From Candidatus Heimdallarchaeum aukensis (GTDB lineage: Archaea; Asgardarchaeota; Heimdallarchaeia; Heimdallarchaeales; Heimdallarchaeaceae), in NCBI GenBank assembly GCA_021513695.1, contig CP084166.1, positions 576,001-640,000 on the forward strand: 64,000 nt of DNA. Direction: 5' to 3'. The position numbers and the translations under genes are program-made. The notes under the pieces were generated by a model, which saw only the letters and a program-made list of their open reading frames with translations, made no database searches and had not been told where the DNA came from. Numbering within the stretch: position 1 is the first letter of the stretch; each line of letters opens with the position of its first letter. This document shows, one piece after another, positions 7,273 to 52,182 of the stretch.

Positions 7273-8092
7273 TTTCCGCCAAAAATTTTTCTATATTAGT
7301 AATTCGAAGCCTACCTGAGATAAGTTGAGGAAGTAGAATATCTCTTAATTTAATTAAAATATTAATTTCATCCTTATTTTTTCTAATTTTTTCAAAGATT
7401 GGGTCAATTATTTCTCTAAACTTTAGTAAAGTAGTCTTATCAGGTTTTATAATCGGAATCCTAAAAAGGTTACTTTGATTAATTTTTAATTGTACTGCAC
7501 CAGTTATATAAGGTCTAATGTTTATATTCATGAGATGTAACATAACAAATTCTGTACAAAATTCATTTTTTCCTTGTATTACATGAACATGATTATTCGC
7601 CCAAAATTTTCCATGTACATATTGTAAGATGGGTTTTTCATTGTTATCAATAACTGAACCATCTTCTGCCATTAAGAGAAAAATGCCATCAAAAATGTAA
7701 TCATCAATATAGTCTAAAATACTAGCTGCCCCATAATATGGATAAATACCTTTTCTTACCTTTCTTTCTATTTTTGATAAAGGAATTCTTTTTGAATCAT
7801 ATATACTTATGACTTCTTTGAGCGTCCCAACTTCCCATCCTTTTGGTATTTCTTTATCTACTTCCTCATTATATTCAAATTCGCCATCTTTGAAAGGTTC
7901 AAAATCAATAAACCAAGATCTGAAGATAGTTTGGGCTATCTCTTCTAAAACTTTGTTCATCTTCTGATTGAGTTCAATTTTTTGATCTATAGAGCTTAAT
8001 AATTTACTAATAAATTTTTGTATTCTTAAATTAGGTATAGGAAGTGGGATATTTTCAATAATTGAGGTATTTAAGGAAGGTCTAGTAGTACC
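7253..8092 (-). pseudogene. hsdS: 5'-truncated type I R-M specificity subunit (central conserved region + TRD2 + C-terminal conserved region only)
   Basis: The listed ORF 7253..7960 begins in the central conserved region (FRSWFIDFEPF). I translated upstream and the frame stays open to 8092 (GTTRPSLNTSIIENIPLPIPNLRIQKFISKLLSSIDQKIELNQK). It stops exactly at the IS left inverted repeat. Overlaps the hsdR start by 20 nt. Confidence 0.8.
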
Positions 8093-8855
8093 GGTAGTGT
8101 CTAGTTTTCTTCCGACAAAAATATTTGTGGGGACTCTAATAGTAAGATATGAACATTCAAAAACTATCTACTCTTTTTAAGAGATGCAGAGTCCCCAAAA
8201 AAATAATAATAAAAGCTATTTATGAATATATTGGTTCAAAGAATGGGTTGAGGACAGTAGCATGGAAGAATGGTTTAACGCATCAAACATTATGGTATTG
8301 GGTAAAGAAGTTCAGGCTCTTTAGGGAAAGTTTACATAGAGTTGTAGCAGAGAGAGGGGGAATACCAGAGATTATAGTAGTAGATGAAACAGAGATTAGG
8401 ACCTCTCAAGGCTCAATATATCTGTGGTTCGCGTTAGATCCTTACAACAAGACTTTACTGGGTTTTAGTATTACTAAAGGACGGAGTAATCTTGAATGTT
8501 TACTAACTTTCCGTTATTGGCTCAAATGTTGGGGTTTTAAGCCTCGTATTGTCGTTACAGATGCAGGAGTATGGTATCCTGTCTTACTTCGTCTAGGTAT
8601 CAAAATCTCCGTTATCAAAGGTGGTTTACGCTCCTATATTGAACGTTTTAATGCTACTCTTAAGAGTTATCGTTGGTTTCATTCTATTCTCCACTGCACT
8701 TGTCCTATCCGTGCCGTCTATGGCTCTACTCATCTTTCTGGTTTTCTTACTCTCTTTATGCTCTATTATAATTTCGTTCGTCCTCATCAGAGCTTAGGAC
8801 ATCCTCCCCTTAGTTCCTTTTTACCTAGGAGGTGGTATAAAAACTAGACACTACC
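8093..8855 (+). mobile_element. IS6-family-like insertion sequence (763 bp)
   Basis: Perfect 16-bp terminal inverted repeats, GGTAGTGTCTAGTTTT at 8093-8108 and its reverse complement at 8840-8855. Single transposase ORF. Size, GG-starting IRs and DDE layout fit IS6. Flanks (GTAGTACC / AGTCAAAA) show no target-site duplication. Confidence 0.8.
8149..8847 (+). CDS. DDE transposase (IS6-like) with N-terminal HTH
   Basis: 232 aa. Candidate DDE triad in VVDETEI, VVTDAGVWY and YIERFNATLK. The stop codon lies inside the right IR. Confidence 0.8.
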   Translation: MNIQKLSTLFKRCRVPKKIIIKAIYEYIGSKNGLRTVAWKNGLTHQTLWYWVKKFRLFRESLHRVVAERGGIPEIIVVDETEIRTSQGSIYLWFALDPYNKTLLGFSITKGRSNLECLLTFRYWLKCWGFKPRIVVTDAGVWYPVLLRLGIKISVIKGGLRSYIERFNATLKSYRWFHSILHCTCPIRAVYGSTHLSGFLTLFMLYYNFVRPHQSLGHPPLSSFLPRRWYKN

Positions 8856-9122
8856 AGTCAAAAATAGAAAAAAAATATAAAAGGCTTTTCTAAATAACAA
8901 CATTAGTTAAAGTATGTGGATTCTTACTAACAACCTTTGAATATAATTCATTTTTTATTTTTTGAATTATCTTCGCTCTATATTCCTCTTCTTTTTTGAA
9001 TCTAAATTAAACAATATAATTTTGTTCAACAGATAATTTTATATTGGGTTATAACCCATTACCGCCCAGAAGTCTAAAAAATAAAATAAGAGGCGATAAA
9101 AATAGGATATGGATCAGGAAGA

Positions 9123-9524
9123 ATGCGTGGTGGAGGAAGAGGAAGAGGAGGAGGATTTGGATTAGGAGCAGGAGGAGCATGTATTTGTCCAGTGTGTGGT
9201 ACAAAAGCTGCTCATGCAAGAGGGGTACCTTGTTTTCAATCTCGATGCCCACAATGTGGAGCACCAATGACTAGAGCAGAAGCTTATGCCGGCCCCCAAC
9301 CACAGAATAGTAAAAACGTACAAGAAGAGAAAGAATACAAATTTGATACAGCAGCAAAACCGCATATAGACCAATCTAGATGTAAGGGGTGTGCTTTATG
9401 CATTAATAGTTGTCCTTTTAATGTTATTAGAATGGAAAATGGTCATGCAATTATTGATTCTTCACGCTGCAGAAGTTGCGGAGTATGTATTTCTTCTTGT
9501 CCTGAAGGGGCGATAGTTTATTAG
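9123..9524 (+). CDS. 2x[4Fe-4S] ferredoxin-domain protein with Gly/Arg-rich N-terminus and a 4-Cys zinc-ribbon-like segment
   Basis: MRGGGRGRGGGFGLGAGG, then CICPVCG..x..CPQCG, then CKGCALCINSCP and CRSCGVCISSCP. Locally purine/GC-rich start in an AT-rich genome. Confidence 0.7.
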   Translation: MRGGGRGRGGGFGLGAGGACICPVCGTKAAHARGVPCFQSRCPQCGAPMTRAEAYAGPQPQNSKNVQEEKEYKFDTAAKPHIDQSRCKGCALCINSCPFNVIRMENGHAIIDSSRCRSCGVCISSCPEGAIVY

Positions 9525-9556
9525 AAAATGTAAAAAAAAATTAAAAAATACTCTTT

Positions 9557-9934
9557 TTATATTTTTAGTGGATCAATAATTATACTTTCTTTATCAAAAG
9601 TTGCCAAGTAAAAGTCTTCTGTTAAAGTGAGACAACCAGTTGGACAAATATCTTGACATAGTGCACAGAAGCAACATTTTCCTAAATCTATTTGTGGATA
9701 AGTTTTTGGGTATTTCTCTTTATATTCTTCTTTTACTTCTACCATCTTTATCGCTTTATTTAAACAAATTTTGGCACAAGATCCACAAGAGATGCAGTTA
9801 TCGATGTCAAACTTATGTTTTGCTCTCTCTCTTTCTGATATCTCTACTTTCTCCATTGGAAAAAGAACAGTCATTGGTCTTTTGAACAAATTCTTGAATA
9901 TTTCTGAAATAATACTTAGTTTCATTGTTATCAC
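9557..9934 (-). CDS. 2x[4Fe-4S] subunit of a complex-I/group-4-hydrogenase-like module (NuoI/MbhN/EchF-like)
   Basis: CISCGSCAKIC and CCFCALCQDICP motifs. Starts 2 nt after the upstream NuoD-like gene ends. Confidence 0.8.
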   Translation of the reverse strand: MITMKLSIISEIFKNLFKRPMTVLFPMEKVEISERERAKHKFDIDNCISCGSCAKICLNKAIKMVEVKEEYKEKYPKTYPQIDLGKCCFCALCQDICPTGCLTLTEDFYLATFDKESIIIDPLKI

Positions 9935-24216: not shown

Positions 24217-24846
24217 TTGAATTCAATGATTTCAAGAACATCGATGCTTAAACCAGAATTGCTTAAAAAAATGATGGCTGAAAGTGAAAAGAAAATCAGA
24301 GTAGAAAAAGAGTCTATTAACGCAATTAATGTTTTTCCAGTTGCTGATGGAGACACAGGAGCAAATATGTATTTTACGATAAAGAAAATAGTAGAAGAAG
24401 TTCAAAACGTAACAGATGAAGAAAAAATTCTTTCAGCTATTAATAGAGGAGCATTTTTAGGTGCTAAAGGAAATTCAGGTGTTATTTACTCTCAATTTTT
24501 AATAGGTATAGTTGAGAGCCTGGAAGAACAACAAGAAATTACAATAAATTCATTTTCTAAGGGGCTAGAGCAAGGAGTAGAATATGCTTATGACGCAGTA
24601 ATGAACCCTGTAGAAGGGACAATATTAACTGTTATGCGTAAAGTGGCTGAAAAAGCTGCACAAATAGCAAAAACAAATGAAGAAATTGGGTGGGTAGAGT
24701 TTTTTGATGAATTAATTGAAACAGCTTACAAATCTTTAGAAGAAACTCCAGAACAACTCGAAGTGTTAAAAAACGCAGGAGTAGTAGATGCAGGAGCAAA
24801 AGGTTTTGTTCATATATTAGAATCATGGAGAAAAGCTTTGGAATAA
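24217..24846 (+). CDS. DAK2 (DhaL-like) domain protein
   Basis: INVFPVADGDTGANM motif. The track start is TTG at 24217. ATG at 24226 sits about 28 nt after a TTTTAAAC box and may be the real start. Confidence 0.75.
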   Translation: MNSMISRTSMLKPELLKKMMAESEKKIRVEKESINAINVFPVADGDTGANMYFTIKKIVEEVQNVTDEEKILSAINRGAFLGAKGNSGVIYSQFLIGIVESLEEQQEITINSFSKGLEQGVEYAYDAVMNPVEGTILTVMRKVAEKAAQIAKTNEEIGWVEFFDELIETAYKSLEETPEQLEVLKNAGVVDAGAKGFVHILESWRKALE

Positions 24847-24906: not shown

Positions 24907-26205
24907 TTGCTTGTTATGACTACTTCAGAAGAGTCAATACCAAGTGATAAATTTCTGAACTTAGAAAAAAATAAGATAGTAGAGGGAGAGATATTAAAAG
25001 AAACGGATAAGGAAAAAATAACACTAACTCCTAAAACAGGAAAAACAAGAAGTAAATTTGAATTGTATTTCTTTAGTACAGAAGTAATACTTATGATCGC
25101 GGGTATTGTTATTCTAATTTTAGTTTCAATTAGTCCTTGGCTTTTCTTTGAACACAATTTAATAATAAATAGAGATGAGTATGGAACAGTAATCAGCACA
25201 AGTATGTATATTGGAGATTTATCCCCATTGGCATTAGGATTAACTACTGTTTGCTTGATGTTTCCTTTATTAAACAACTATTTGTACATTTTTGTATTAG
25301 AAAGTGAAAAAAGATTAAAAGCTTATATTATACGATCTGCTACAAATGCAATAGCTTTAGCAGTAATGCTTGCTGTAAAAGCAAATGGAATTTATTTTAA
25401 AAGCAATTATTCACAGGCAGTTTTTTTTGCAATTTATACACTTTTTGGAAACTTTTACTTGAGAACAGCCTTATTGTTTACAAGAAAAAAATCAAAGAGT
25501 ATCTTATTCAGCAGAATAGAATCAGCTTCTCCAGCAGAAATAGAATGGAAAAAATACAACAAAATTTCAGGTTATCTAGCAGTAATATTAGGAATATTCA
25601 TGCTGCAGTTTATTTGGTTAATATACCATCTCATAATTAGACCTGCAAAAATAAACAAAACAAAGGATCAACTAATCATTGAATTTTTGGATTTTGGCCA
25701 AGAAGTAAACTGTAGTAAAATAGCCTTAGAGCTCGCCATTTCGCTTGAAGAAGTAATTTATAGAATAAAAAAGCTAGTATTTAAAGAACAAATCTCTGGA
25801 GAGTTTTCACGTTATGGTTTTATTTTACATGAGATAAAAAATCCAAAATGGTTCTCAAATAAAGTATCCGAGAAATACGAAGCATTTATTCTGACAGTGA
25901 AAATGTCAGAAAAAGAAAAGCATGTTAACAGATTCTTTGATATAGCGGAAAGAAAGAAGATTAGTGTTAATGAATTTAGAAGAATATTTAAGATCAAAGA
26001 TGATTATATCATAAGTGATTTTGTTCTATTACTACCTCCCCATACTGTTAAATTGAGAAAAAACATTGTATTAGGAAAGCAATTCCTTTTATTTAACTAT
26101 GATTTGATCTTGATGAAAAGAAAGCAAATCAAAGAAAGTTTGCTTTACCACTTTGACGAAGTATTTAACCTAAAGATTACTGAAAAGGTAAAAACAAAAA
26201 AATAA
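24907..26205 (+). CDS. Polytopic membrane protein with C-terminal winged-helix-like segments
   Basis: 432 aa. Hydrophobic helices at about residues 55-250. Then CSKIALELAISLEEVIYRIKKLV and ISVNEFRRIFKIKDDYI segments resembling wHTH. Confidence 0.5.
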   Translation: MLVMTTSEESIPSDKFLNLEKNKIVEGEILKETDKEKITLTPKTGKTRSKFELYFFSTEVILMIAGIVILILVSISPWLFFEHNLIINRDEYGTVISTSMYIGDLSPLALGLTTVCLMFPLLNNYLYIFVLESEKRLKAYIIRSATNAIALAVMLAVKANGIYFKSNYSQAVFFAIYTLFGNFYLRTALLFTRKKSKSILFSRIESASPAEIEWKKYNKISGYLAVILGIFMLQFIWLIYHLIIRPAKINKTKDQLIIEFLDFGQEVNCSKIALELAISLEEVIYRIKKLVFKEQISGEFSRYGFILHEIKNPKWFSNKVSEKYEAFILTVKMSEKEKHVNRFFDIAERKKISVNEFRRIFKIKDDYIISDFVLLLPPHTVKLRKNIVLGKQFLLFNYDLILMKRKQIKESLLYHFDEVFNLKITEKVKTKK

Positions 26206-26355: not shown

Positions 26356-27426
26356 ATGATATGGCTTTCTTTATCTTATTCAATTTTTTCTTTAATAATT
26401 TTAACAATGTTTCTGATTGTTATTATTATAAAACAACTTGAACTTCGATGTACAGCAGTTTATTTTCTAATCATGATCATTGTATCTATTATTGGATGGA
26501 TAGTTGGAGATATGTTACAGATCATTTTTAGCAGCTTGGAAAATAAAGAATTGGTTCTCCTATTTTCACGAATAGCTACTATAAGTAGCATGATTGCAAT
26601 GATTAGCACAGTCTTATTTGCTAGAGTTCTAACTGCTCGTCAAACTTTGAATTCAACAATCGTAATTATTGCTTTCATGTTGTTTAGTGCTGTCGTTGCT
26701 CTCACTTTAAGTTCTAGTTATAAAGTAATTGATCCACCTAAAGATGTAGAATTTTACAAGACCGAAGCAGAACTCTTATGGGTAATTTTTGATGGAGTTT
26801 TGGTAATATTTGCTGGTTCTGTTTTCCTTTACTATCTTATTCGACAAAGAAAAATTGTACAAAAAAGATACTTACCTGTTTTAACTTTAATGAGCGTAGG
26901 AGTCATAATCGCTTTCTTTGTTAGCACTATCCTTTACACAATTTATGCGATATGGTTTATTGTTCCTTTATTACATTTAGAACTGGTAAGCGCTAGTTTA
27001 GGCGCAATAATAATAGGAATAGCAATGATCAAAGGAGGAAAAGAAGCAATTTACTATTCATCAAGAGTTTTCTCATTACATATTTTTGATGAAGTAGGAA
27101 TAAGCTATTATGCTAGTGTTTTTCAAGCAGGATATATAGTTGATGAGCAATTAATCTCAGGAGTAGCATCAGCTATTATAAGTTTTGCAAAAGAACTAAT
27201 CGGAAAAGAGGTTTTTCCACGAGAAATAGATCTTGACGATTACTCATTATTACTAGCTAAAAAAGACAATATAATTATTCTAATAAGCGTGGAATATCCT
27301 ACTGCACATCTAAGACAGACGATGAACAATATTATTGAAAAATTCAGTATGGATATGAGTGAAGAGGAAATAGGAAATCTTGTTGAAAACTATATATGCT
27401 TTGAACCAAGAAAACTAGTCCACTAA
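26356..27426 (+). CDS. 7-TM-like membrane domain fused to a cytoplasmic longin/roadblock-type domain
   Basis: N-terminal 230 aa are polytopic. The C-terminal 120 aa share the pattern seen in 46018..48018 and 57494..59419 (h-h-h-x-x-x-G-I-x-h-x-S-x-x-F ... L-I-S-G-h-x-S-A-I-I-x-F-x-x-E-L). Confidence 0.6.
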   Translation: MIWLSLSYSIFSLIILTMFLIVIIIKQLELRCTAVYFLIMIIVSIIGWIVGDMLQIIFSSLENKELVLLFSRIATISSMIAMISTVLFARVLTARQTLNSTIVIIAFMLFSAVVALTLSSSYKVIDPPKDVEFYKTEAELLWVIFDGVLVIFAGSVFLYYLIRQRKIVQKRYLPVLTLMSVGVIIAFFVSTILYTIYAIWFIVPLLHLELVSASLGAIIIGIAMIKGGKEAIYYSSRVFSLHIFDEVGISYYASVFQAGYIVDEQLISGVASAIISFAKELIGKEVFPREIDLDDYSLLLAKKDNIIILISVEYPTAHLRQTMNNIIEKFSMDMSEEEIGNLVENYICFEPRKLVH

Positions 27427-27634
27427 TTCTTTCTTTTTTCATTTTTTGCCTAATTTTCGTAAATTTTTATAAGAAAAGCAAGTAAAAATTCTTTAAGCTC
27501 CAATTATTTGTAAAAAATGAGAAAAAAAGAGAATATTAGAGATAAATTCTTAAAAAGGCAAAAATTGAGACAACAATAAAAAAGAAGTTTTAGCATAACA
27601 AGAAAAAGAATCAAATTGAGAGAGAGGTAAAGTA

Positions 27635-28102
27635 ATGAAAAATTACTCAAAATTAATTAAATTTTCTACAGTAATAGCACTACTAGGATTCTTAGTTTCA
27701 CTTTTTCTTTTGTATTCTGAACTAACAAATTCATTTTATTGCGTAATTGAAAAACAATTTTTTGACTGTGCAGAAGTAAATAGAAGCTCTTATGCTACTA
27801 TTCTTGGAATACCAATAAGTCTTATGGGAGCTGTTTACTACTTATTTATTATTATAACTGCAATAATGATAACTAAACAGGTAAAAGAAAAGCTCTTACT
27901 TGATATTTTACTTCCTGTAACTACAACTGCTGGGTTAATTTTCTCTGTCTATTTGACTTTAATAGAAGCATTGGTAATAAAAAAATTCTGTGAATATTGT
28001 TTAACATCAGCAATTTGTAGCCTTATCTTGGCTTTAATTTACTTAATAAGACCTATTGCTAAACTAAAAAAATTCACAGCTAGAAAGGTAAATACAAGCT
28101 AA
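27635..28102 (+). CDS. VKOR (vitamin K epoxide reductase) family membrane oxidoreductase
   Basis: Loop cysteines C..x8..C followed by SSYATILGIPISLMG, and CEYC in the last TM. Confidence 0.75.
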   Translation: MKNYSKLIKFSTVIALLGFLVSLFLLYSELTNSFYCVIEKQFFDCAEVNRSSYATILGIPISLMGAVYYLFIIITAIMITKQVKEKLLLDILLPVTTTAGLIFSVYLTLIEALVIKKFCEYCLTSAICSLILALIYLIRPIAKLKKFTARKVNTS

Positions 28103-28160
28103 AGTTAATCTAATCGAAATAATCAAAAACTTAAAATAGGCTAAAATTTTTTATTTATAT

Positions 28161-28200
28161 GGCTGAAGCAATAATATATTTTTGTATTTCCGCTTCAGCC
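28161..28200. terminator. GC-rich hairpin between convergent genes
   Basis: GGCTGAAGC at 28161-28169 pairs with GCTTCAGCC at 28192-28200 (22-nt AT loop). Followed by CTCCCTCCCTC. Confidence 0.3.
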
Positions 28201-28313
28201 CTCCCTCCCTCAATTTTGCATATTAATAATTAAATTCTCAAATTTTTTGAACATTCAAAATTAAAAAAAGTTAAGGAACTGTTTGTGATAAAAAAAGAAA
28301 AAATGTAGTTAGT

Positions 28314-30413
28314 TTATAGTAAAGGAATTAATCCTGCTCCACCGTTAATGAGCATTAGTAATCCCATAAAGATGGATGAGGTTAGACTCATTACTACTAG
28401 TAAAGTGTTTATTGATGGTCCTGCTGTATCTTTGAATGGATCTCCTACAGTATCTCCAGTTATTGCTGCTTTATGAGTTTGTGTTCCTTTTCCTCCTAGG
28501 TTTCCATCTTCTATCCATTTCTTTGCGTTATCCCAAGCTCCTCCTGCATTACTCATGAATATAGCAAACACGAAACCAGAGAGTATTGACCCTGCTAGAA
28601 ATGCACCTAAGGAAGCTACTCCGAAGAATATTCCTACAAGTAGTGGTAACATAATTGATATTATACTTGGTAGTATTAACTGTTTTAATGATCCTTTTGT
28701 AGCAATTGCGATTGTTTTTGAGAAATCTGCAGGTTCTTCTCCTGTTAGAATCTTTGGATTTTCTTTGAACTGTCTTCTTATCTCATCAACCATCTTTGCT
28801 GCGTTCTTCTGTACTCCTAAAATCAGTACTGCACTAAATAATGCTGGAGCCATAACTCCAAAGAATGCGCCTATTAACACATTTACTGATAGCAAGTTTA
28901 TTCCACTTTCTACTATTCCAGCTTCTTGAGCATATGAGAACATTAGTGCTACTACAGCTAGATTTGCAGCTCCTATTGCAAAACCTTTAGTAATTGCTTT
29001 GGCTGTGTTTCCTGCAGAGTCTAATCTATCAGCAATGCGAATAGTTTCTTCTCCTAAACCACCTTGTTCAGCGATAGCTCTTGAATTGTCTACAATTGGG
29101 CCATAGGCATCATTTGAAACAATGGTTCCTACAATAGCCAACATTCCTACTGCAGCCATTGCTACTCCAAATTGTGCATCAAGTAAGTAAGCTAAGAACA
29201 TAGCGATAATTATACCTACTCCTGGAGGCACAACGCTTATAAGTCCATAGGAAAATCCAGAAAGGATTACTAGTGCATCTCCCTCTTCAGCTGCTTTAGC
29301 AATGTTTCTTGTTGGAGGAAGATCATCTCTAGTAAAGTAGTCACTTGTCCAACCAATGACAATTCCGCTAGCAAGACCTAGTATAACAGCAAGATAGTTT
29401 CTCCACAGGCGACTAATATCTTCTTGAGTTAAGGAATTGTTCAAAGTCATAAGCCAGACAATAAATGCACCTAAAGCTGCAAATATCAAAGTAGCTAAAT
29501 AAGTTCCAAGGTTTAGAGAACGTCCAGGGTTATCAGAACTTATTATTTTGATAATGAAAATACCAATTAATGAAGCGATGAGTCCAATTCCTGAAAGCAC
29601 GAGAGGATAGACAATAAAAGTTTCTTTAGCAGCAGACAGAATAAGAGAATTAGCTAAAATCATAGCGGCAACAATGGAAGCTACATAAGAGTCAAATAGA
29701 TCAGAACCCATTCCAGCTAGATCTCCGACGTTATCTCCTACATTATCTGCAATTGTAGCAGGATTTCTTACATCGTCTTCAGGTAAGTCGAATTCACTCT
29801 TACCAACTAAATCTGCACCTACATCAGCTGTTTTAGTATATATTCCTCCACCACATTTCATGAACAGTGCAATTGTACTAGCTCCAAAACTGAACCCTAG
29901 TACCACATATGGTGATTGGAATATCCAGTACAATCCTGAAACACCTATTAGTGCAGCACCTACTACTGCTAAACCCATTACAGCTCCTCCGAAGAAAGCA
30001 ATGTCAAAACCTTTCTTTGTTCCTACAGTACAACCTTGTGCAGCTCTTGTATTTGCTTTTACTCCAACCATCATTCCTAACCAACCAGCAATCATACTTG
30101 CTGCTGAACCTATGAGATAAGATATAGCTTGCTCCCAGTTTAGATCTCCAGCAACAACAGGAACTTTATATTCTGTCATTTCAGAAGGTAAGAATAGTAG
30201 AATTACTAAGAATAGTATGAATACAAAGATGCTAAGCACTGTGTATTGAACCTTCAAGTAAGTTTCTGCCCCTTTTTCTATATAACCTGAAACTTCTTGC
30301 ATTTTTTCATTTCCAGGGTCTTCTTTCATGACTAAGAATGCGAAGAAAACCGCCATTCCTATCGAAATTACCCCTGCTATTAGCGATACAAGTAAAATTA
30401 ACGGTACAGCCAT
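28314..30413 (-). CDS. hppA: Membrane-integral proton-translocating pyrophosphatase
   Basis: 699 aa. DNVGDNVGDLAGMGSDLF, GNTAKAITKGFAIG and DTVGDPFKDTAGPSIN motifs. Confidence 0.95.
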   Translation of the reverse strand: MAVPLILLVSLIAGVISIGMAVFFAFLVMKEDPGNEKMQEVSGYIEKGAETYLKVQYTVLSIFVFILFLVILLFLPSEMTEYKVPVVAGDLNWEQAISYLIGSAASMIAGWLGMMVGVKANTRAAQGCTVGTKKGFDIAFFGGAVMGLAVVGAALIGVSGLYWIFQSPYVVLGFSFGASTIALFMKCGGGIYTKTADVGADLVGKSEFDLPEDDVRNPATIADNVGDNVGDLAGMGSDLFDSYVASIVAAMILANSLILSAAKETFIVYPLVLSGIGLIASLIGIFIIKIISSDNPGRSLNLGTYLATLIFAALGAFIVWLMTLNNSLTQEDISRLWRNYLAVILGLASGIVIGWTSDYFTRDDLPPTRNIAKAAEEGDALVILSGFSYGLISVVPPGVGIIIAMFLAYLLDAQFGVAMAAVGMLAIVGTIVSNDAYGPIVDNSRAIAEQGGLGEETIRIADRLDSAGNTAKAITKGFAIGAANLAVVALMFSYAQEAGIVESGINLLSVNVLIGAFFGVMAPALFSAVLILGVQKNAAKMVDEIRRQFKENPKILTGEEPADFSKTIAIATKGSLKQLILPSIISIMLPLLVGIFFGVASLGAFLAGSILSGFVFAIFMSNAGGAWDNAKKWIEDGNLGGKGTQTHKAAITGDTVGDPFKDTAGPSINTLLVVMSLTSSIFMGLLMLINGGAGLIPLL

Positions 30414-30577
30414 TTTTTATACTCCTATTTTTTTCTTCTTTTCCGTATCATACACCCGTATTTAAAATTTGTGCAAATAAAAATTAATATGATTAACAGT
30501 TTTTTTAATAAAATAATTCATGTTAAATGGTTCAAAGATGAAGAAAAAAAGCGTTTAGGATATATGAAAAGAAAAAA

Positions 30578-31834
30578 TCATTTTAGTTTTTTCTTTAACT
30601 CTCTTACAAATAAAAATACAGTTAATACTGTAGCCCCCAAGGCAAGTAAAAACAAATAAATTAAAGTTATCTCAAATGGAGAATTATCTAGAAAATATCC
30701 AAAAGACCAAGGAAATACGGCTGCTAAAGTATTAGGTATTGCAAACAAGAAACCAAGTGCCGTTGATCTATTCCTTTGATGTACTTCTTCTGTTACATAT
30801 TTTGTACTTGCTGCACTACTAAAGTGTAAAAAGGCTATAAAAGTAAAGTACAACATTATTATTCCCCATGTACCAGCATTTTTTCCTAATAGAAAAATAA
30901 GTAAAATCGATACTGATGAACCTGCTAAAGAGATTAACATTGTTAAAGGAGCGTTCTTTTTATCACTTAATATTCCTCCAAAAATTGCAGTTAAACCTCC
31001 AATAATTAGCATAACAGAAGATAACCATCCAGCATTTAGAATACTATAATTGTAATAATCCACAAATATTATGCTTAGAAATTGTGTAACTATTTTATAC
31101 AACCCTGATCTGAGTGAGGAATAAGCTAAACATGTAATCACTGCTAATGTAAGTACTGCAAAGAACTCAAATTTTAGCCAATAAAGAATTCTTTCTTTTG
31201 TTGATAACGAACTTCTTCTCTTCTCAATTTCTTCTAGTTCTTCTTTTTCAAAACTGTAATTAATTAATTTATTAAATCCTATAAACATCAGAAAAGCTAA
31301 AACAATTGCTCCTGTTCCAAAAAAGAGAAAGAATTTCCTCCATCCAATCCATTCACTAAATGAAGCTACTATTCCTGGGGTAAGTGCTGTTCCTATCATT
31401 CCTAATGCTGCATTTAGAGCCATTGTCAATCCTTTTTTATTCTCATAAAGATCAGCTATTGCTGCATAAGCTACAGGATGATAAAATGATGCACCAAAAC
31501 CTACAGTTGCTGCTGCAAGAGCTAATGTAGAATAGTTTTGAGCTACTGAAGCTATTATTAGATGTAAAGCCATGAAAAATACACCTAAAGGAACAAACAG
31601 TTTTTTACTTGCTAGCCATTTATCGCCTAGTACTCCTACAGCAAAAGTACAAAGTGCAAAAACTACCATCTGAATAGTTGCCAACAAACCAATTTGTTTA
31701 TTGTTCATTACTATATCATTTCTTATGACAAACATTGCTGCTCCAAATACATAAGCATAGAAATGGTTTAGGAAATGACCAAAAATCAAGATACTTAATG
31801 AAGCAATAGGATTTTTACTGTGTATCCGCGACAT
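30578..31834 (-). CDS. MFS transporter
   Basis: 418 aa, 12 predicted TM helices in a 6+6 arrangement with a central charged loop. Confidence 0.85.
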   Translation of the reverse strand: MSRIHSKNPIASLSILIFGHFLNHFYAYVFGAAMFVIRNDIVMNNKQIGLLATIQMVVFALCTFAVGVLGDKWLASKKLFVPLGVFFMALHLIIASVAQNYSTLALAAATVGFGASFYHPVAYAAIADLYENKKGLTMALNAALGMIGTALTPGIVASFSEWIGWRKFFLFFGTGAIVLAFLMFIGFNKLINYSFEKEELEEIEKRRSSLSTKERILYWLKFEFFAVLTLAVITCLAYSSLRSGLYKIVTQFLSIIFVDYYNYSILNAGWLSSVMLIIGGLTAIFGGILSDKKNAPLTMLISLAGSSVSILLIFLLGKNAGTWGIIMLYFTFIAFLHFSSAASTKYVTEEVHQRNRSTALGFLFAIPNTLAAVFPWSFGYFLDNSPFEITLIYLFLLALGATVLTVFLFVRELKKKLK

Positions 31835-31983
31835 TCTATCTCTTCCACTACTTTTGATGTTAATTTTTGAATATTATTTTTAAACTTTTTTTTGAACGAA
31901 GTTTCCTAGATAAAAAAATTTAAACATGCAAAGAAGAGAATATATTAGAAACAATTGATTAACTACGATATTGGTTGAACTCC

Positions 31984-32547
31984 ATGACAGAAAAACAGTT
32001 TATTTTCAAAATTGTACTTATTGGTGATGGCGCAGTAGGAAAAACTTCTATTAGAATGCAATATATGGGATACGGATTCAATACCAGTCATCTTATGACC
32101 CTGGGAGCAGATTTTTCATCTATTGATAAAGAAATTATTCCTAACGAAAAATGGAAATTTCAAATTTGGGATTTAGCAGGACAACAAATGTTTGAACAAG
32201 TTCGAGCTCGTTTTTACAAAGGAGCTCAGGGTGCCTTACTTGTCTTTGATATCACTCGCCCTTCCTCTTTTCAAAACCTTCCCATGTGGTTAAACGAATT
32301 GTATAAATTCAACGGATCAGGAGTTGTCCCTGTTGTAGTCCTTGCTAATAAGAGTGATTTGAGAGATAGAAAAAGTGTTAAATTCAAACATGTAGAAAAA
32401 TATGTTTCTGAATTAAATCTGCGTACCCAACGCTATGGTGTAACTAATTATTGTTTAGAAACAAGTGCCAAGACTGGATTAAACATCGATAGAGCTTTTG
32501 AAATTCTCGGGAGAAGCATTCGAGATAAATCAAGCAAAAAAACATAA
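31984..32547 (+). CDS. Ras/Rab-like small GTPase with canonical G1-G5 motifs
   Basis: GDGAVGKTS (G1), TLGADF (G2), WDLAGQQ (G3), NKSD (G4), SAK (G5). No C-terminal Cys lipidation motif. The track ORF starts at TTG 31975; I prefer ATG 31984. Confidence 0.9.
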   Translation: MTEKQFIFKIVLIGDGAVGKTSIRMQYMGYGFNTSHLMTLGADFSSIDKEIIPNEKWKFQIWDLAGQQMFEQVRARFYKGAQGALLVFDITRPSSFQNLPMWLNELYKFNGSGVVPVVVLANKSDLRDRKSVKFKHVEKYVSELNLRTQRYGVTNYCLETSAKTGLNIDRAFEILGRSIRDKSSKKT

Positions 32548-32628
32548 TACCCAATACATTAATTTTTTATACTTTAAGTGATTCTTTTAAGTATATACTA
32601 ATAAACGAAAGATTCTGAGGAAAAACCA

Positions 32629-33195
32629 ATGCTCACATTTAAGATCCTTTTTATAGGCGATAATAGCGTAGGTAAAACTACTTTATTTAAAAAAATTGTT
32701 CAAAATGAAAAAAATAAAGAAAAGATCCCTTCTCTAAAAGCAGAAATAGTAAAAGTTTATCGTACAATCCAAGGAGAAGAAGTAGCTTTTGAACTATATG
32801 ATTTACCTGCGAGAGAACTTTTATCATCTCCTCAAAGAACAAAATGGTATTTAGGGACTGATGGAGCGTTTATAGTTTTTGACATTACAAAAGCAGAAAC
32901 GTTCAGAAGAGTAACATTCTGGCTAGAACAATTAATAAATTATAACAGAAAAGGGAAGATACCTATAGTATTAGTAGGTAATAAAATAGATATGAGAGAC
33001 AATCCTAATGTGAGAAATAGGACACTAAACCCTATAGATGCTCAAGCTTTCTGTCTTCGACTAAATCGTACATCAGCTAGAGAAGGAATTAATAATGAAT
33101 TCTTCGAAGTCTCAGCAATCTCAGGGAAAGGTTTAACTCAATTACTTGATGCATTAGCTAAAAATATTTATAACCATCACAAAAAAATAAAATAG
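32629..33195 (+). CDS. Divergent small GTPase-like protein with degenerate switch I/II
   Basis: GDNSVGKTT (G1), NKID (G4) and SAI (G5) are retained. G3 reads YDLPARE instead of DxxGQ, and no switch-I Thr is evident. Confidence 0.8.
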   Translation: MLTFKILFIGDNSVGKTTLFKKIVQNEKNKEKIPSLKAEIVKVYRTIQGEEVAFELYDLPARELLSSPQRTKWYLGTDGAFIVFDITKAETFRRVTFWLEQLINYNRKGKIPIVLVGNKIDMRDNPNVRNRTLNPIDAQAFCLRLNRTSAREGINNEFFEVSAISGKGLTQLLDALAKNIYNHHKKIK

Positions 33196-33227
33196 GAAAC
33201 ATAGCTCTACTCGGAGATAAGATTTGA

Positions 33228-33773
33228 ATGTTTTTAGTCGCTCACATTGGATATACTTTATTAACTGCTGAAATACTCGCACACCTATATTATTGGTTGT
33301 TCTTAAAGAAAAAGAATTTGGAGCCTACAGATAGTTGGGGAATAGTTCATTTTGCTTTTCTACCCCTCATAATAGGTGCTCTTGGTCCAGACATTATTGA
33401 TAAATTAATTTCAGAACCTATAACAGGTTATGGCAGGTATATTGGACATTCTATTCCGTTCGCTATATTGATATTTATTTTATTTATAGCCATTTTTTGG
33501 AAGAAACCAACAGTTTATTCAGCTTTGATTCTTGGGTGGATAATGCACATCATTCTGGATACAGCAGGTTTTATTCCCTGGTTTTTCCCTTTTGTAGAAT
33601 ACAACTTTCAATCAAAAACTCAAACATATATTGAGCTTCTTTTTCAACCATATGTTTACAATAACGAAATTGGAGGATTCCTGTGCATACTTTTTCTCGC
33701 AGTTCTTTACTTTAGAAGAGGTTTTACTCTCAGATCTTTTATTCAACATATCTTTACTTTCTCTCCTAAATAA
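33228..33773 (+). CDS. Membrane-bound metal-dependent hydrolase-like protein (DUF457/YdjM type)
   Basis: Starts MFLVAHIGYT, then GPDIIDK, GHSIPF and HIILD motifs on TM helices. Confidence 0.55.
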   Translation: MFLVAHIGYTLLTAEILAHLYYWLFLKKKNLEPTDSWGIVHFAFLPLIIGALGPDIIDKLISEPITGYGRYIGHSIPFAILIFILFIAIFWKKPTVYSALILGWIMHIILDTAGFIPWFFPFVEYNFQSKTQTYIELLFQPYVYNNEIGGFLCILFLAVLYFRRGFTLRSFIQHIFTFSPK

Positions 33774-33825
33774 TTTGAATAGATTTAAATAGTAGTCCAT
33801 TACTACTATAGTAGTAATAGGGCGA

Positions 33826-35067
33826 TTGAGTATGAAATATTGCACAAAATGTGGAACAAAAACACCAGAAGATGCAGTTTTTTGTTATGTATGTGGAACA
33901 AAAATTGATGATCTATCTGTTGATTTACAAAAATCAACAAAGGACAAAGTAAGCGATCACAGACATTACTATCCTCACTCTTCACAACAAATAGATGATA
34001 AATACTACAAAGATTATACCCACAAAGAACACGTTTTTCTTAAAATCTTAGCTATTGTCTTTATAATTGGAATGATCACTGCTTCTATTTCTTTATTTGC
34101 TGTTTTCAGCTCTTTCAGAATGGATGTCATTGGTACTCAAAATTACTATTTAGAAGAAGCAAACTCTAATGAAGTTTTTCTAAATATTTACAACGGTATT
34201 GGAGACATAGACATTATCTTTACTGATGATACAGACATAATGGTCGAAATAAATGTAATCGTATTAGGCAGAAAAAATGTTGATGAGTCAGAATTTGCGG
34301 AATTTAAAATAAATGATTATGAGAAAAATCTTACCATTGAGTTTGATTCTGGAGAACAAATCTTTTCTTTCTTTAATAAGAAAATTCTTGAATATGATAT
34401 TAGCATTACTTTAAACTCTAAACTAGTTCTATATGCAGATGTTCAGATGGAAACGGGAGACTTTTACTTGGACATCAATTGCCAAACAGCTAATATAAAC
34501 AATTTAAATATTGTAACAAAGACAGGTGATGTTAGCATTTATGCATATTCCACGGAAAATGTAACAATCAACAACGTATATCTAGTTTCCACAACTGGAC
34601 AAATTCAGTTTAGTTTAAGTGATGAAGGAGCAAATTACATCAGCAATGTATTTGCAACCACAACCACAGGAAAAATATTTTTCGATTTTGGTAGGAATAG
34701 TATATACAATGGAAATGAAATAGAACTTACAACAACTACAGGAAAAATAGTCCTATACTGCACTAACATGCAATATTTAGAAAATGTTACTTGGTTAATT
34801 TCTACAAGTACAGGTTCGGTTTATGCAAATATCACTCAAGATTTTATCATTGAAAAACAATTACAAATTTCTTTCTTTATTACAGTTAATACTGGGTCAA
34901 TAGAAATTCTTGCTGAATTCCACGATGATATTGGTTACCTTTTCGAAGCAACAACTGATACTGGAACAATTACAATTCCTGAACAATCTCCAAATTATGA
35001 TACTGCTTTAAACAAGTATTATTTTTCCTTAAGCACTGACACTGGAAACATAATGGCAGAATTGTAA
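33826..35067 (+). CDS. Zinc-ribbon / TM / DUF4097-like beta-helical (putative adhesin) protein
   Basis: CTKCGTK..CYVCGTK, one TM helix, then repeated TxTG(D/K/S)I motifs (TKTGDVSI, TTTGQIQF, TTTGKIFF, TTTGKIVL, STSTGSVY, VNTGSIEI, TDTGTITI, TDTGNIMA). Confidence 0.6.
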   Translation: MSMKYCTKCGTKTPEDAVFCYVCGTKIDDLSVDLQKSTKDKVSDHRHYYPHSSQQIDDKYYKDYTHKEHVFLKILAIVFIIGMITASISLFAVFSSFRMDVIGTQNYYLEEANSNEVFLNIYNGIGDIDIIFTDDTDIMVEINVIVLGRKNVDESEFAEFKINDYEKNLTIEFDSGEQIFSFFNKKILEYDISITLNSKLVLYADVQMETGDFYLDINCQTANINNLNIVTKTGDVSIYAYSTENVTINNVYLVSTTGQIQFSLSDEGANYISNVFATTTTGKIFFDFGRNSIYNGNEIELTTTTGKIVLYCTNMQYLENVTWLISTSTGSVYANITQDFIIEKQLQISFFITVNTGSIEILAEFHDDIGYLFEATTDTGTITIPEQSPNYDTALNKYYFSLSTDTGNIMAEL

Positions 35068-35136
35068 TCTTATGCAGCATTTTTTTCTTTTTTTTGATTA
35101 CAATAAATTAAAAAATGTTCAAAATTAGTTTTTCAT

Positions 35137-36282
35137 ATGACCGATAAATACATTGAACAAATTAGAGAAGATTCTCCTACTTTGAACCAAGTAGCTTTTT
35201 TGAATCATGCGAGCACAGCTCCTTTACATGGAAGAACACAGCAAGCTTTCTATGATTATTTGAATCAATGGTCTAAATACAATTTTACTGAATCAAGAGA
35301 AAAAAGTCAACTCGCTCGTGAAGAATTTGCTAAATTAATTGGAGCTTCAAAAGAAGAAATTCTTTTTACTTCTGATGTTACTCAAGGAACTAATTTAGCA
35401 GTTCACATGTTAGATTATGATGAAAAAAGCAATATTGTCTGCTATTGGAATGATTATGCAGGACAAGTACATAGTGCCCTTTTCTTGCAAAAAAAGAAAA
35501 ATATAGAGTATAGACCTGTTCCAGATCGAGATGGATACATTTATCCTGAGGACTTTGCAGAAAAAATAGACAAAAACACTAAAATTGTTCTTTTGTCTCA
35601 TGTTCAATGGATTACTGGATTTAAGTCTGATATCAAGGAGATAGCTAAAATCGCTCACGAAAACGGTGCAATGATTTTAGTCGATGTAATTCAAAGTTCG
35701 GGTGTTCTCAAGATCGATGTTAGAGATTGGGATATTGATTTTCTTACTTCGGGTGTAGCTAAATGGCTTTTAGGACCTAATCAAACAGGTTTTTTCTATA
35801 TGAGAAAAAGATTCATTGATGAATACGATCCTCCTTTTCCAGGTTACCAAGGAGCAGATTATGGCTCTATTGAGTCTCCTTATTGGAATGTTAAAAAAAT
35901 ACAATACAGAGAAGGGATAGATAAGTTTCAAATTGCAAACATAGGTCCAATGATGTATCAAATTGCCTACGAAGGAATGAAAATAATCACTGATTATGGA
36001 ATAGAAAAAGTAGAGAAAAGAGTTTTAGAACTAACTGCTTATCTTATTAAGAGAATCCAAAATTTAGGCAATTATGAGCTTTTAAGTCCTGTTGAAGATA
36101 AGTATAGAGCTGGGATTGTTAATTTCAAAGTTGATAAAAACATTGAGATAGCCAAAAAACTTGCAGAAGAAAAGATAGTTGTTTCTCCAAGATATGGAGG
36201 AATCAGGATTAGTCCTCATTTCTATAATACAAAGGAAGACTTAGACAAATTTATTGAAAAATTCAAATCTATAAAGAAATAG
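35137..36282 (+). CDS. Class V aminotransferase-fold PLP enzyme (cysteine desulfurase-like)
   Basis: 381 aa with fold-type I pattern. Candidate PLP-lysine in TSGVAKWLLGP. Confidence 0.75.
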   Translation: MTDKYIEQIREDSPTLNQVAFLNHASTAPLHGRTQQAFYDYLNQWSKYNFTESREKSQLAREEFAKLIGASKEEILFTSDVTQGTNLAVHMLDYDEKSNIVCYWNDYAGQVHSALFLQKKKNIEYRPVPDRDGYIYPEDFAEKIDKNTKIVLLSHVQWITGFKSDIKEIAKIAHENGAMILVDVIQSSGVLKIDVRDWDIDFLTSGVAKWLLGPNQTGFFYMRKRFIDEYDPPFPGYQGADYGSIESPYWNVKKIQYREGIDKFQIANIGPMMYQIAYEGMKIITDYGIEKVEKRVLELTAYLIKRIQNLGNYELLSPVEDKYRAGIVNFKVDKNIEIAKKLAEEKIVVSPRYGGIRISPHFYNTKEDLDKFIEKFKSIKK

Positions 36283-36380
36283 AAGTAGATTATCTCTATC
36301 TTACTTTTTTTGATGCTTACTAATTTTTCTGCCTAAATTTTATATAGTAGTACCATTTTATCCTCTTAATACAAATACAT

Positions 36381-46017: not shown

Positions 46018-48018
46018 ATGAAAAGTTTTTTACCTAAATTTCTGCTTAATGAAATCGATCTTTATTTAGATGATTCTCAGAAGTCTATTTTTGAAGAGAA
46101 GGTTAAAAGTATTGTAAGTAATGCTTCTGACTATGATACGATTTCCAAGGACATTACTGCCTTTCTTTTGAATGAAGATTTTACTGATTTAACGACTTAT
46201 GATCAAATGCTTATTCTTGTTTCAATTCTTCTAAATTACTGGAAAAAGGATTATTCTCTTATTTTTAGCATCTATGACAAATTTCATTCTTTTGATTTAC
46301 CTCTTAGCGTTATGATTTGTTTTCTTCTATTTTTTCAAGAATCTTTTGATTTAACCACTTTTAACCTTTGGAGAGAGAAGATAGAAGAGTACATTACAAA
46401 CATTTCTGATTCTACTGAAAAAGAATTTCTTAAAACTGCTATTGAGCAATTTGCTTCTAAGCTTGAGCAAAGGCCTGAGGTTGGTTATCGTTCTATGAAT
46501 CAGCTTATTCGTTCTCTTGAGGAGAATGAGCATATTTCTTATCGATATCCTTTTGTTTTCGAGGCTTTAGAGATTGATCTTATTCAGTACTCTAACATTT
46601 TAGCTGATGAAGTTTTTTCTGAAATCTGGATTGAGTCCGCTAGAAGAAGAGCTGAAGTTATGGAAAACTATGGCATGTTAGTTCAAGTTAACAGCCTTCT
46701 TGCTAGTATTTTAGTTAAAGAGTATCATCTTGAAAAAGCTAAAGAGAAAATTGAGGAGGGGTTAGAGATTGCTAAGAGGATCAATTCTCCTATTTTAGCT
46801 GCTCAAATTGAGTTGAACAAGGCCTTGTTATTGAAGATGCAAGGTAAGTTGGACGAAGCTTTGAAGTTATATGAAAAAATTGCTAAAGTTAAGAATCTTC
46901 CTCAAACTTTTCAATTGGATATTTACAGTAAAATAGGTGAAATTTATCTCAACAAGGACGAGATAGTTAAAGCTGAAGAATACTACCTTAAAGCTCACGA
47001 GATTAATAAGAAACTTAATTTTATCAATCCTCTTGTTGAAATAGTTATAGGTTACATTAACCTGATTTTAGAGAAAGATAAGGGGGAAGCTTTAGATGAG
47101 GGGTTGAAGATTGCTGAAGAACAGTTTGATTTTTCTTCTATTCCTTACTACTACTTCTACAAAGGTATTTATGAGCAACAAAGGGTTAACTTATCCTTAT
47201 CTATTGAATACCTTGAACAAGCTTTGAACTCTTTTGAGCACCAAAAGAACTTTGAGGGTATTGTTTATACTAACGGTGCATTGGCAGAGTCTTATCTTCA
47301 GATTTACAAGCTTCTTCACGATAACAAATATTCTTCTCGGTTCCTCTATTATATTGACAATCTTATTGAAATACTAAAGGAGTTAAACAATCCTTTGTAT
47401 GTTGAAGCAATAAAGACTAAAGCAGGTTACTATTTAGATAAAGGTTTAATTAAAAATGCTGAAGATCTGTTTATTGATGGAATAGAATTTGCTAGGACAC
47501 GAGGATTAAAAGAGGAAGAAATATATCTTAAGGAATCGCTTACTAACAAGAAGAATTTAACAAAAATAACTTTAGAAGGTACTCAAATACTCTTTAGAAA
47601 AATAAGGATGTTCAGCTTTGGTAAGCATAAAACTGTTCCCACCAAATTATACTTACTTTTAGCCATTAATGAAGCTGGAATTCCTTTAGTTTCTCACTCT
47701 TTTACTGAAGAAGAGATGGTAGATGATCTTTTAGTTTCAGGGTTAATTTCAGCTATAATTAATTTCTCTTCTGAAGTTCTAGGAAAAGGAGGAGAAACCT
47801 TACGATCAATAAATCATGAGGGCAAAGCTGTTATAGTAGAGAAAAAGGACAATGTGATGGGTATCTTAGTTGCTGAAGATGAGAATTTCGAGATGAGACT
47901 GGAACTTAGACAGTTTTTGCAGAAAGCGCTTGATAAGTTAGTTTCTGGACTTCCTATTGTCAGAGAAAACGACAGTGAGATTTTTTCTATTATAGAAGAA
48001 GTTTTTGAGAGAAAATAA
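46018..48018 (+). CDS. TPR-rich scaffold protein with C-terminal longin (Bet5/sybindin-like) / roadblock-type domain
   Basis: 666 aa. Helical/TPR repeats through about residue 520. C-terminal KLYLLLAINEAGIPLVSHSF..DDLLVSGLISAIINFSSEVL..INHEGKAVIVEKKDNVMGILV. Confidence 0.75.
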   Translation: MKSFLPKFLLNEIDLYLDDSQKSIFEEKVKSIVSNASDYDTISKDITAFLLNEDFTDLTTYDQMLILVSILLNYWKKDYSLIFSIYDKFHSFDLPLSVMICFLLFFQESFDLTTFNLWREKIEEYITNISDSTEKEFLKTAIEQFASKLEQRPEVGYRSMNQLIRSLEENEHISYRYPFVFEALEIDLIQYSNILADEVFSEIWIESARRRAEVMENYGMLVQVNSLLASILVKEYHLEKAKEKIEEGLEIAKRINSPILAAQIELNKALLLKMQGKLDEALKLYEKIAKVKNLPQTFQLDIYSKIGEIYLNKDEIVKAEEYYLKAHEINKKLNFINPLVEIVIGYINLILEKDKGEALDEGLKIAEEQFDFSSIPYYYFYKGIYEQQRVNLSLSIEYLEQALNSFEHQKNFEGIVYTNGALAESYLQIYKLLHDNKYSSRFLYYIDNLIEILKELNNPLYVEAIKTKAGYYLDKGLIKNAEDLFIDGIEFARTRGLKEEEIYLKESLTNKKNLTKITLEGTQILFRKIRMFSFGKHKTVPTKLYLLLAINEAGIPLVSHSFTEEEMVDDLLVSGLISAIINFSSEVLGKGGETLRSINHEGKAVIVEKKDNVMGILVAEDENFEMRLELRQFLQKALDKLVSGLPIVRENDSEIFSIIEEVFERK

Positions 48019-52171: not shown

Positions 52172-52182
52172 TTTGAATTTAT

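Follow-up and report, generated by a model that had tools for sequence, protein, structure and literature searches.

Asgard archaea carry dozens of small GTPases and more than 100 Roadblock/longin families and, to our knowledge, how these proteins are connected to membranes or signals is essentially unknown, because the genes rarely lie in operons. In eukaryotes, membrane proteins do talk to longin/roadblock regulators, as in the cases of LYCHOS/GPR155 (with GATOR1) and SLC38A9 (with Ragulator). The longin and roadblock domains form homo- or heterodimers that constitute GTPase platforms (PMC10933270), which are mostly GEFs (Mon1-Ccz1, TRAPP) and sometimes GAPs (MglB, FLCN, GATOR1) (PMC10933270; PMC12290439). 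Around 130 Roadblock/longin asCOGs have been described in Asgard archaea, many of them in lineage-specific multidomain proteins, including longins fused to two-component signal-transduction domains (bioRxiv 10.1101/2020.10.19.343400) and longins combined with TPR and ESCRT-related domains (PMC11188069). As for membrane modules, HisKA_7TM (PF16927) is a recognized sensor domain carried by histidine kinases of archaea and bacteria, and its archaeal versions are often missed by the standard model (PMC5847659; PMC6944256), and fusions of a GPCR-like seven-helix (7TM) bundle to an output domain are exemplified in prokaryotes by the 7TM-GGDEF proteins DgcT/CdgI of E. coli (PMC10760455).

The locus described here lies in a 64,000-nucleotide stretch of Candidatus Heimdallarchaeum aukensis DNA (the window), which is AT-rich (GC about 30%). 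It encodes a two-module Heimdallarchaeial integral membrane protein, in which a 7TM bundle is followed by a cytoplasmic longin domain, with the following features:

26356..27426, + strand: 7TM-longin gene, ATG start, 356 aa, stop codon included, from the open reading frame (ORF) listing and full-length homologues
26356..27054, + strand: seven-helix TM module, residues 1-233, predicted N-out/C-in; GPCR-like bundle, HisKA_7TM-like via divergent relatives
27031..27066, + strand: conserved linker next to the membrane, residues 226-237 (K-GG-KEAIYYSSR), made up of the last, cytoplasmic part of TM7 and a four-residue connection to β1
27064..27396, + strand: longin-type domain, residues ~237-347, predicted cytoplasmic, ~110 aa

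Full-length homologues of the 356-aa protein, with 35-88% identity, are found in more than 20 genomes of Heimdallarchaeota, and on this comparative evidence the ORF is a real gene. The initial annotation had assigned 27064-27426 to the last 120 residues of the protein, and these coordinates are exact: residue 237, the R of RVFSLHIFDEVG... (RVFSLHIF...), corresponds to base 27064, and 27426 is the final base of the stop codon, such that the interval holds 120 residues and the stop. Its count of about seven TM helices also stands, as seven are obtained both by hydropathy and in the AlphaFold2 model (residues 2-30, 33-60, 64-93, 101-118, 140-167, 170-200, and 203-233).

Across 18 members of the family, the mean number of Lys and Arg residues is 7.3 in loops 1-2, 3-4, and 5-6, versus 2.4 in the N-terminus and loops 2-3, 4-5, and 6-7, with loop 4-5 being net acidic. 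The inside value exceeds the outside value in 17 of the 18, the exception having a probably mis-called N-terminal extension. Judged by this excess of positive residues in the predicted inside loops, the N-terminus is outside and the longin domain is cytoplasmic. The TM7 helix is unbroken to residue 233 and β1 starts at residue 238, with four residues between them, and G227, G228, Y233, and S236 of the linker are invariant, with S235 nearly so. The continuous helix, the short gap, and the near-invariant G227-G228...Y233-x-S235-S236 pattern together suggest that the two modules are rigidly coupled.

We give roughly even chances to the protein being a membrane sensor or anchor whose longin platform is offered to a small GTPase or to other, paralogous longins. 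The 7TM module would sense a cue in the membrane or outside the cell, or would at the minimum hold the protein in place, and the longin domain, as longin and roadblock domains do elsewhere, would pair with a second longin, which could be another copy of itself or a paralogue (for instance one of the TPR-longin proteins described below). This pair would in turn form a platform that binds and regulates (in GEF-like or GAP-like fashion), or merely recruits, one of the many small GTPases of the Ras superfamily that these archaea possess. A GTPase switch would thereby sit at the membrane and answer to the 7TM sensor, with the kinase output that is usual for a prokaryotic 7TM sensor swapped for a eukaryote-type GTPase platform. 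A more specific version strikes us as improbable: a ligand or other stimulus would gate the 7TM receptor, and the longin fused to it would directly control the nucleotide state of a Ras-superfamily GTPase, alone or with a TPR-longin paralogue. If true, Heimdallarchaeia would have receptor and GTPase switch in one polypeptide, with a sensor module of prokaryotic kind joined to a GEF/GAP platform of eukaryote type, and the protein would be an archaeal counterpart, possibly an evolutionary forerunner, of receptor-controlled G-protein signaling and likewise of the eukaryotic lysosomal sensor-Ragulator/GATOR logic.

The same domain occurs in two further proteins of the window:

46018..48018, + strand: paralogue 1, 666-aa TPR protein with Pfam TPR matches; C-terminal longin-type domain at ~47641..48009
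57494..59419, - strand: paralogue 2, 641-aa TPR protein with Pfam TPR matches; C-terminal longin-type domain at ~57515..57895

Searching all ORFs of the window with the last 131 residues of the target returned these two proteins with E-values of 5e-10 (46018..48018) and 3e-4 (57494..59419). A narrow profile built from 18 target orthologues scored 32.2 bits for the 666-aa protein and 17.3 bits for the 641-aa protein (194.4 bits for the target), and a broad profile of 190 family members scored 95.1, 108.9, and 125.6 bits for the 666-aa protein, the 641-aa protein, and the target, respectively. No fourth copy was found in the window, all of its other ORFs scoring below 7 bits with the broad profile; a weak phmmer hint for the MFS-PhoU protein at 48102..50084 (E 0.11) was gone with both profiles. 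The three domains align collinearly over their entire length with about 25% identity, and are therefore homologous, and in both paralogues the TPR repeats are clear in Pfam upstream of the domain. Single-sequence, profile, and alignment evidence thus agree that the membrane protein and the two TPR proteins have a domain in common, as the initial annotation had claimed, and the membrane protein is, as it had also pointed out, a third architectural context for this domain within 32 kb, the three copies spanning 27064..59419. This observation is confirmed, and the interpretation attached to it, that of a longin-type domain fused to a polytopic membrane module, is supported: of the two outcomes that the initial annotation named as counting against it, non-homologous segments and a fold that is neither longin nor roadblock, neither was seen, and the topology prediction gave the cytoplasmic location that it expected. 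That such a family recruits a common partner to membranes and scaffolds is a further proposal.

Outside the window, querying a word-indexed database with the domain profile brought up just 12 short proteins, and it was an exhaustive search of representatives that revealed the family, which comprises 2008 clusters (50% identity, E <= 1e-3). The domain is almost always C-terminal, and those of its carriers that have names are Asgard archaea without exception. The top 150 representatives divide by architecture as follows:

77 of 150: soluble, at least 400 aa; nine of ten sampled are TPR proteins
33 of 150: short, at most 260 aa; standalone domains or fragments
about 15 of 150 (~10%): ~7TM, 280-400 aa; some TM parts are missed by the target's TM profile
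10 of 150: large polytopic, 650-1130 aa; TM part with no Pfam family
15 of 150: other

By these counts, TPR-longin is the dominant architecture of this family of about 2000 clusters. The 7TM-like versions that the TM profile misses include proteins named Helarchaeota, Odinarchaeota, and Promethearchaeota, and one of the large polytopic versions is from Thorarchaeota. Several times, therefore, membrane attachment of the domain has arisen or has diverged past the point of recognition. The 7TM-longin family proper is small (23-26 clusters) and confined to Heimdallarchaeota-type genomes: a scan of 185,579 species genomes yielded 22 loci, one labeled Bathyarchaeia and one Promethearchaeati, with the complete genome of Ca. 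Heimdallarchaeum endolithica PR6 giving the best match (88% identity) and one genome carrying a tandem duplicate of the gene.

The 7TM-longin gene is preceded by an AT-rich spacer of 150 bp and followed by a spacer of 208 bp, and is probably transcribed alone. Its upstream neighbor, on the same strand, encodes a 432-aa membrane protein not assigned to a family, while the downstream side has VKOR, genes for an H+-PPase-like protein and an MFS protein that run on the opposite strand, and, farther on, a pair of GTPase genes:

31975..33195: two tandem Ras-family GTPase genes, at 31975..32547 and 32629..33195, 4.5 kb from the 7TM-longin gene and outside any operon with it

Among 28 loci (6 + 22), no neighbor, be it a GTPase, a longin, or any other gene, is conserved across all synteny groups. 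A radical SAM gene lies upstream in ten loci (at 66-126 bp in eight of them and farther away in two), and an amidohydrolase gene lies 51-94 bp downstream in ten, mostly the same loci. These flanks are absent from the window, from H. endolithica, and from a group of four loci that have a 639-aa protein and LeuRS as neighbors instead. A third context is common to the window and H. endolithica. Ras-like GTPase genes do occur 4.5-7 kb downstream in seven loci belonging to two synteny groups, but they are of differing families and orientations and we reject them as linkage, reading them as background in GTPase-rich genomes. The lack of GTPase linkage is consistent with the published arrangement of Asgard GTPase, Roadblock, and longin genes, which generally lie outside operons (PMC10933270; bioRxiv 10.1101/2020.10.19.343400). 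The idea that the longin-type family recruits a common partner, perhaps a GTPase, fits the eukaryotic longin platforms, yet comes with no GTPase gene linked to it by conserved gene order.

The distribution of the domain and the gene neighborhood both bear on the best-surviving alternative, in which the protein is purely a membrane adaptor: its longin would be a dimerization handle tethering the TPR-longin scaffolds, with no GTPase and no sensing by the 7TM module. Two TPR scaffolds encoded nearby in the genome do end in this domain, as do about half of the top representatives, longin/roadblock domains characteristically homo- or heterodimerize (PMC10933270), and a conserved GTPase neighbor is absent among the loci examined. 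We nevertheless think this reading unlikely, as an anchor would need far less than a bundle of seven helices with conserved polar residues inside the membrane and a linker that does not vary, and as the closest sequence relatives of the domain, Bet5 and the first longin domain of Mon1 (LD1), are GTPase-contacting longins of Rab GEFs.

The membrane module has no match in Pfam or NCBIfam, and a profile built from it finds 26 proteins, of which the named ones are all from Heimdallarchaeota. Against the sequences of the PDB, the same profile found no GPCR; its sole match, a designed coiled coil, is an artifact of composition. A family signal comes instead from five divergent relatives with the full 7TM-longin architecture (P0192, P0033, P0190, P0191, and P0193), which are tied to the target family with E-values of 6e-22 locally and 1e-50 to 3e-61 database-wide. 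Each of the five matches HisKA_7TM in a single collinear stretch covering approximately positions 4-215 of 224, with E-values of 4e-6 to 3e-3 and scores of 17.8-27.2 bits, just under the gathering score of 28.6 bits; the target itself has no match at E <= 1. The TM module is thus probably a distant relative of the HisKA_7TM sensor module, through a link that is transitive. In the predicted structure, the bundle matches GPCR helix packing with the same N-out/C-in orientation, at 4-15% identity, and the resemblance to GPCRs is, as far as the model goes, one of fold only. The conserved residues T117, W142, Y194, H207, and E209 are all situated, in the model, toward the outer end of the TM helix to which they belong, an arrangement that is compatible with an outward-facing binding pocket.

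The membrane module could alternatively move a solute or ion, with the longin as a regulatory tail that gates it or reports its state, as in a transceptor. The bundle contains conserved charged or polar residues (H207 and E209, as well as D52/Q55 in most members), the longin-type domain is also found on large polytopic proteins with ~9-15 hydrophobic segments, one of which has a weak Sugar_tr match, and one divergent relative has a weak NCBIfam match to a "putative transporter" (E 0.01). We consider a transporter or channel decidedly unlikely, however, since neither the target nor its close relatives match any transporter family, the HisKA_7TM sensor module is the only consistent family signal, and the fold resembles receptors and not carriers.

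Returning to the cytoplasmic module, DSSP assigns the same elements in the full-length AlphaFold2 model (mean pLDDT 80, pTM 0.80, from an 18-sequence alignment) and in a domain-only model (pLDDT 82, pTM 0.77): β1 238-245, β2 250-255, α1 262-282, β3 290-292, β4 297-303, β5 306-312, α2 317-329, and α3 336-346. We note that the alignments behind these models are shallow (14-18 sequences). The resulting order, β-β-α-β-β-β-α-α with two C-terminal helices and no N-terminal helix, is that of longins as defined in the literature (PMC10933270), such that the initial choice of a longin-type label is borne out by the predicted models. Solved longin domains show significant 3D similarity to the domain model, with AP μ/σ, LAMTOR, VAMP7, Sec22, and Ykt6 ranked below the top matches.

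At the sequence level, the target has no match in Pfam (E <= 1) or NCBIfam (E <= 0.1), and the narrow domain profile finds only dynein LC7b (E 0.05; 0.05-0.2 across the domain-profile searches). A profile of 42 diverse members finds TRAPP Bet5 (E 1.1e-4 and 4.5e-4) and human MON1A (E 5e-3), as well as an Asgard Roadblock protein (E 0.035). When the same 42 members are scanned singly against Pfam (E <= 0.1), 21 match Fuz_longin_1 (PF19036, the first longin of FUZ/MON1/HPS1; best E 3.8e-6), five Robl_LC7, four Intu_longin_1, three Sybindin, and one Longin, the Robl_LC7 and Longin matches being sub-threshold. The signal for PF19036 (gathering score 26.1 bits) is consistent across the family and mostly sub-threshold (25.6 bits for P0039, 20.3 bits for P0157), while P0176 carries a precomputed PF19036 match and the target has none. 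Most members of the domain family also carry a G-x-P-[IL]-[YF]-S motif in the β1-β2 hairpin, which we take to resemble that of Mon1; in the 7TM subfamily of the target, G-x-P is mostly replaced by G-[IL]-S (Pro to Ser). From these profiles and the predicted fold, we conclude that the domain probably belongs, as a divergent member, with the Mon1/Fuzzy/TRAPP longins of the Roadblock/longin superfamily.

It could alternatively be a GAP module of the Roadblock/MglB type, with the cytoplasmic end of TM7 acting as the N-terminal roadblock helix. This appears very unlikely to us, as the domain lacks an N-terminal helix of its own (only TM7 precedes it) and ends in two helices, as its structural alignments cover 105-113 of 127 residues for longins but only 89-99 for roadblocks, and as both the broad profile and the Pfam votes point to the Bet5, Mon1, and Fuz longins. 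That the three C-termini resemble each other merely by chance or composition, in an AT-rich genome (~30% GC) and for a target without a Pfam match, is excluded by their 95-126 bits versus less than 7 bits for the remaining ORFs of the window, their collinear alignment, the 2008 homologous clusters, and the confident prediction of a specific fold.

The reading of the protein as a sensor or anchor with a longin platform is thus favored by the sequence link of its domain to GEF-type longins (Bet5, MON1A, and Fuz_longin_1), the use of a single domain in several scaffold and membrane contexts, the tight and conserved coupling of TM7 to this domain, and the presence of small GTPases in the window, while a sensing role in particular is favored by the HisKA_7TM matches of the divergent relatives and the conserved polar and aromatic residues at the outer ends of the helices. 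Against it, we count that no GTPase or longin neighbor is conserved across synteny groups, that the target lies below all Pfam and NCBIfam thresholds and its HisKA_7TM link is transitive (27.2 versus 28.6 bits), that most of the 7TM subfamily has G-[IL]-S instead of G-x-P, and that the AlphaFold alignments are shallow and the GPCR likeness is one of fold only.

Our search of the literature on Asgard GPCR-like, 7TM, or transmembrane longins found no description of a 7TM-longin protein; an uncommented entry in an asCOG table is possible. Going by its sequence relatives and predicted structure, the protein is best called a prokaryotic 7TM sensor module with a eukaryote-type longin platform as its putative output, and by the profile searches it belongs to a large family of TPR- and membrane-longin proteins that is, so far, Asgard only and unannotated by current domain libraries. 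It offers a concrete, testable entry to the connection between Asgard GTPases and membranes. If the link to a GTPase is true, longin platforms would already have regulated GTPases at the membrane, in response to signals, before eukaryotes arose, and the protein would illustrate how a prokaryotic sensor of the two-component type can be rewired to an output of eukaryote type. If the link is false, the protein is still a useful marker of this large Asgard family.

Compared with known longin systems, the domain is most like the first longins of Mon1-Ccz1, Fuzzy-Inturned, and HPS1-HPS4 (PF19036, PF19031) and the TRAPP subunits Bet5/Trs23 (Sybindin, PF04099), in its fold, the order of its elements, and its best sequence relatives. 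Unlike the tri-longin Rab GEFs, however, the protein has a single longin (~237-347 of 356) and not three, and its family fuses this longin to 7TM or TPR modules. Its family matches to Mon1/TRAPP-type longins are sub-gathering, the target itself has none, and the proline of the motif is a serine in most of its subfamily. Roadblock/LC7 (PF03259) and MglB proteins, including Asgard Roadblock and the CvnB conservon proteins of Streptomyces, follow the order α-β-β-α-β-β-β, with an N-terminal helix of their own and at most one C-terminal helix, whereas the target has none and two, respectively; the Pfam votes for Robl_LC7, five of 42, are also the weaker ones. Longin SNAREs (VAMP7, Sec22, and Ykt6) begin with a longin, continue with a SNARE motif, and end in a single TM helix. 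We reject this assignment for the target, which runs in the opposite order, has seven TM helices, and has no SNARE match in Pfam; the Pfam Longin family is matched by only one of the 42 members scanned, below threshold.

Among membrane sensors, the protein is like those carrying HisKA_7TM (PF16927) in having seven N-terminal TM helices followed by a cytoplasmic output module, and unlike the HisKA_7TM kinases in that this output is a longin instead of PAS/HisKA/HATPase; a sensor histidine kinase is rejected, as the protein ends with the longin domain and has no Pfam match to HisKA or HATPase_c. Like DgcT/CdgI, it has a GPCR-like seven-helix bundle fused directly to a cytoplasmic signaling domain, but their output is a nucleotide cyclase and that of the target is a eukaryote-type GTPase-platform domain. 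A microbial rhodopsin is rejected, since there is no retinal-binding lysine in the middle of TM7, as is a GPCR at the sequence level, given the 4-15% identity, the failure of the TM profile to find any GPCR, and the lack of a Pfam 7tm match. Unlike eukaryotic GPCRs, no heterotrimeric G protein is involved. Finally, in eukaryotic systems of the LYCHOS/SLC38A9 type, the longin proteins are separate subunits, whereas in the protein described here the longin is fused to the membrane module.

The gene for the seven-helix membrane protein with a C-terminal longin-type domain (7TM-longin; window 26356..27426, +) and the first TPR-longin gene (46018..48018, +) lie among the following features of the window:

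4117..7960, −, type I restriction-modification system with a 1051-aa HsdR and the specificity subunit HsdS
24217..24846, +, Dak2/DhaL-domain gene
24907..26205, +, 432-aa ORF whose N-terminal part holds several hydrophobic helices and whose C-terminal half is soluble
31975..32547, +, Ras-family small GTPase (Pfam Ras, E 4e-40)
32629..33195, +, Ras-family small GTPase in tandem with the preceding one (Pfam Ras, E 6e-26)
33826..35067, +, 413-aa zinc-ribbon-rich protein, with the zinc ribbon N-terminal
43313..45883, +, 856-aa protein with a TPR repeat at its C-terminus
48102..50084, −, 660-aa protein, an MFS transporter (E 1e-40) followed by PhoU_div/DUF47 at the C-terminus (E 7e-15)
52183..54399, −, 738-aa zinc-ribbon-rich protein with multiple double zinc ribbons

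The two GTPase genes lie downstream of the 7TM-longin gene, about 4.5 kb away, and orthologues of both are found at a similar distance in Ca. H. endolithica, with the orientation reversed. We consider their products to be candidate partners of the 7TM-longin protein and nothing beyond that, and the pair is not operonic with its gene. Directly upstream, on the same strand and across a gap of 150 bp, lies the 432-aa ORF, which matches no Pfam or NCBIfam family and whose adjacency to the 7TM-longin gene is not kept in most of the other loci compared for gene order. A Dak2/DhaL-domain gene is found within 1.5–3.5 kb of the 7TM-longin gene both in the window and in L002, L007, L019, L026 and L027, in two different synteny groups and on different sides.

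In one synteny group (L008–L018, 10 loci), the neighbours of the 7TM-longin gene on its own strand are a radical-SAM gene, located 66–126 bp upstream in eight loci and at a greater distance in two, and an amidohydrolase gene 51–94 bp downstream. This arrangement, which is absent in the window, could be a lineage-specific transcription unit. The Heimdallarchaeota MAG locus L022 carries a tandem duplication of the gene, with copies at 5862..6956 and 8619..9827, 1.7 kb apart. The annotation of a closely related Heimdallarchaeaceae MAG (92–96% identity) splits the gene into two neighbouring pieces, 146 and 178 aa long (P0194 and P0171; NCBI locus tags ACTSRR_01305 and ACTSRR_01300), probably as the result of a frameshift or of misassembly in this MAG.

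The first TPR-longin gene is immediately preceded, on the same strand, by the gene for the 856-aa TPR protein, a possible functional partner, and is followed directly by that for the MFS–PhoU_div/DUF47 protein, an unusual transporter-regulator fusion.

Seven further proteins of ~360–380 aa matched in our searches (P0089, P0105, P0125, P0155, P0157, P0160 and P0161; three have a named source, namely Helarchaeota, Odinarchaeota and Promethearchaeota) place the longin-type domain after an N-terminal polytopic region of ~230 aa. Their membrane parts are barely detected or undetected by the profile of the target's seven-helix module, and they are either very divergent relatives or independent fusions. 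The representative search also returned ten large polytopic proteins of 650–1130 aa with roughly 9–15 hydrophobic segments (P0056, P0065, P0077, P0110, P0115, P0119, P0121, P0130, P0132 and P0151), one of them named as Thorarchaeota, whose membrane parts match no Pfam family except for one weak Sugar_tr match. With the longin-type domain again at the C-terminus, these proteins are a further membrane context for it.
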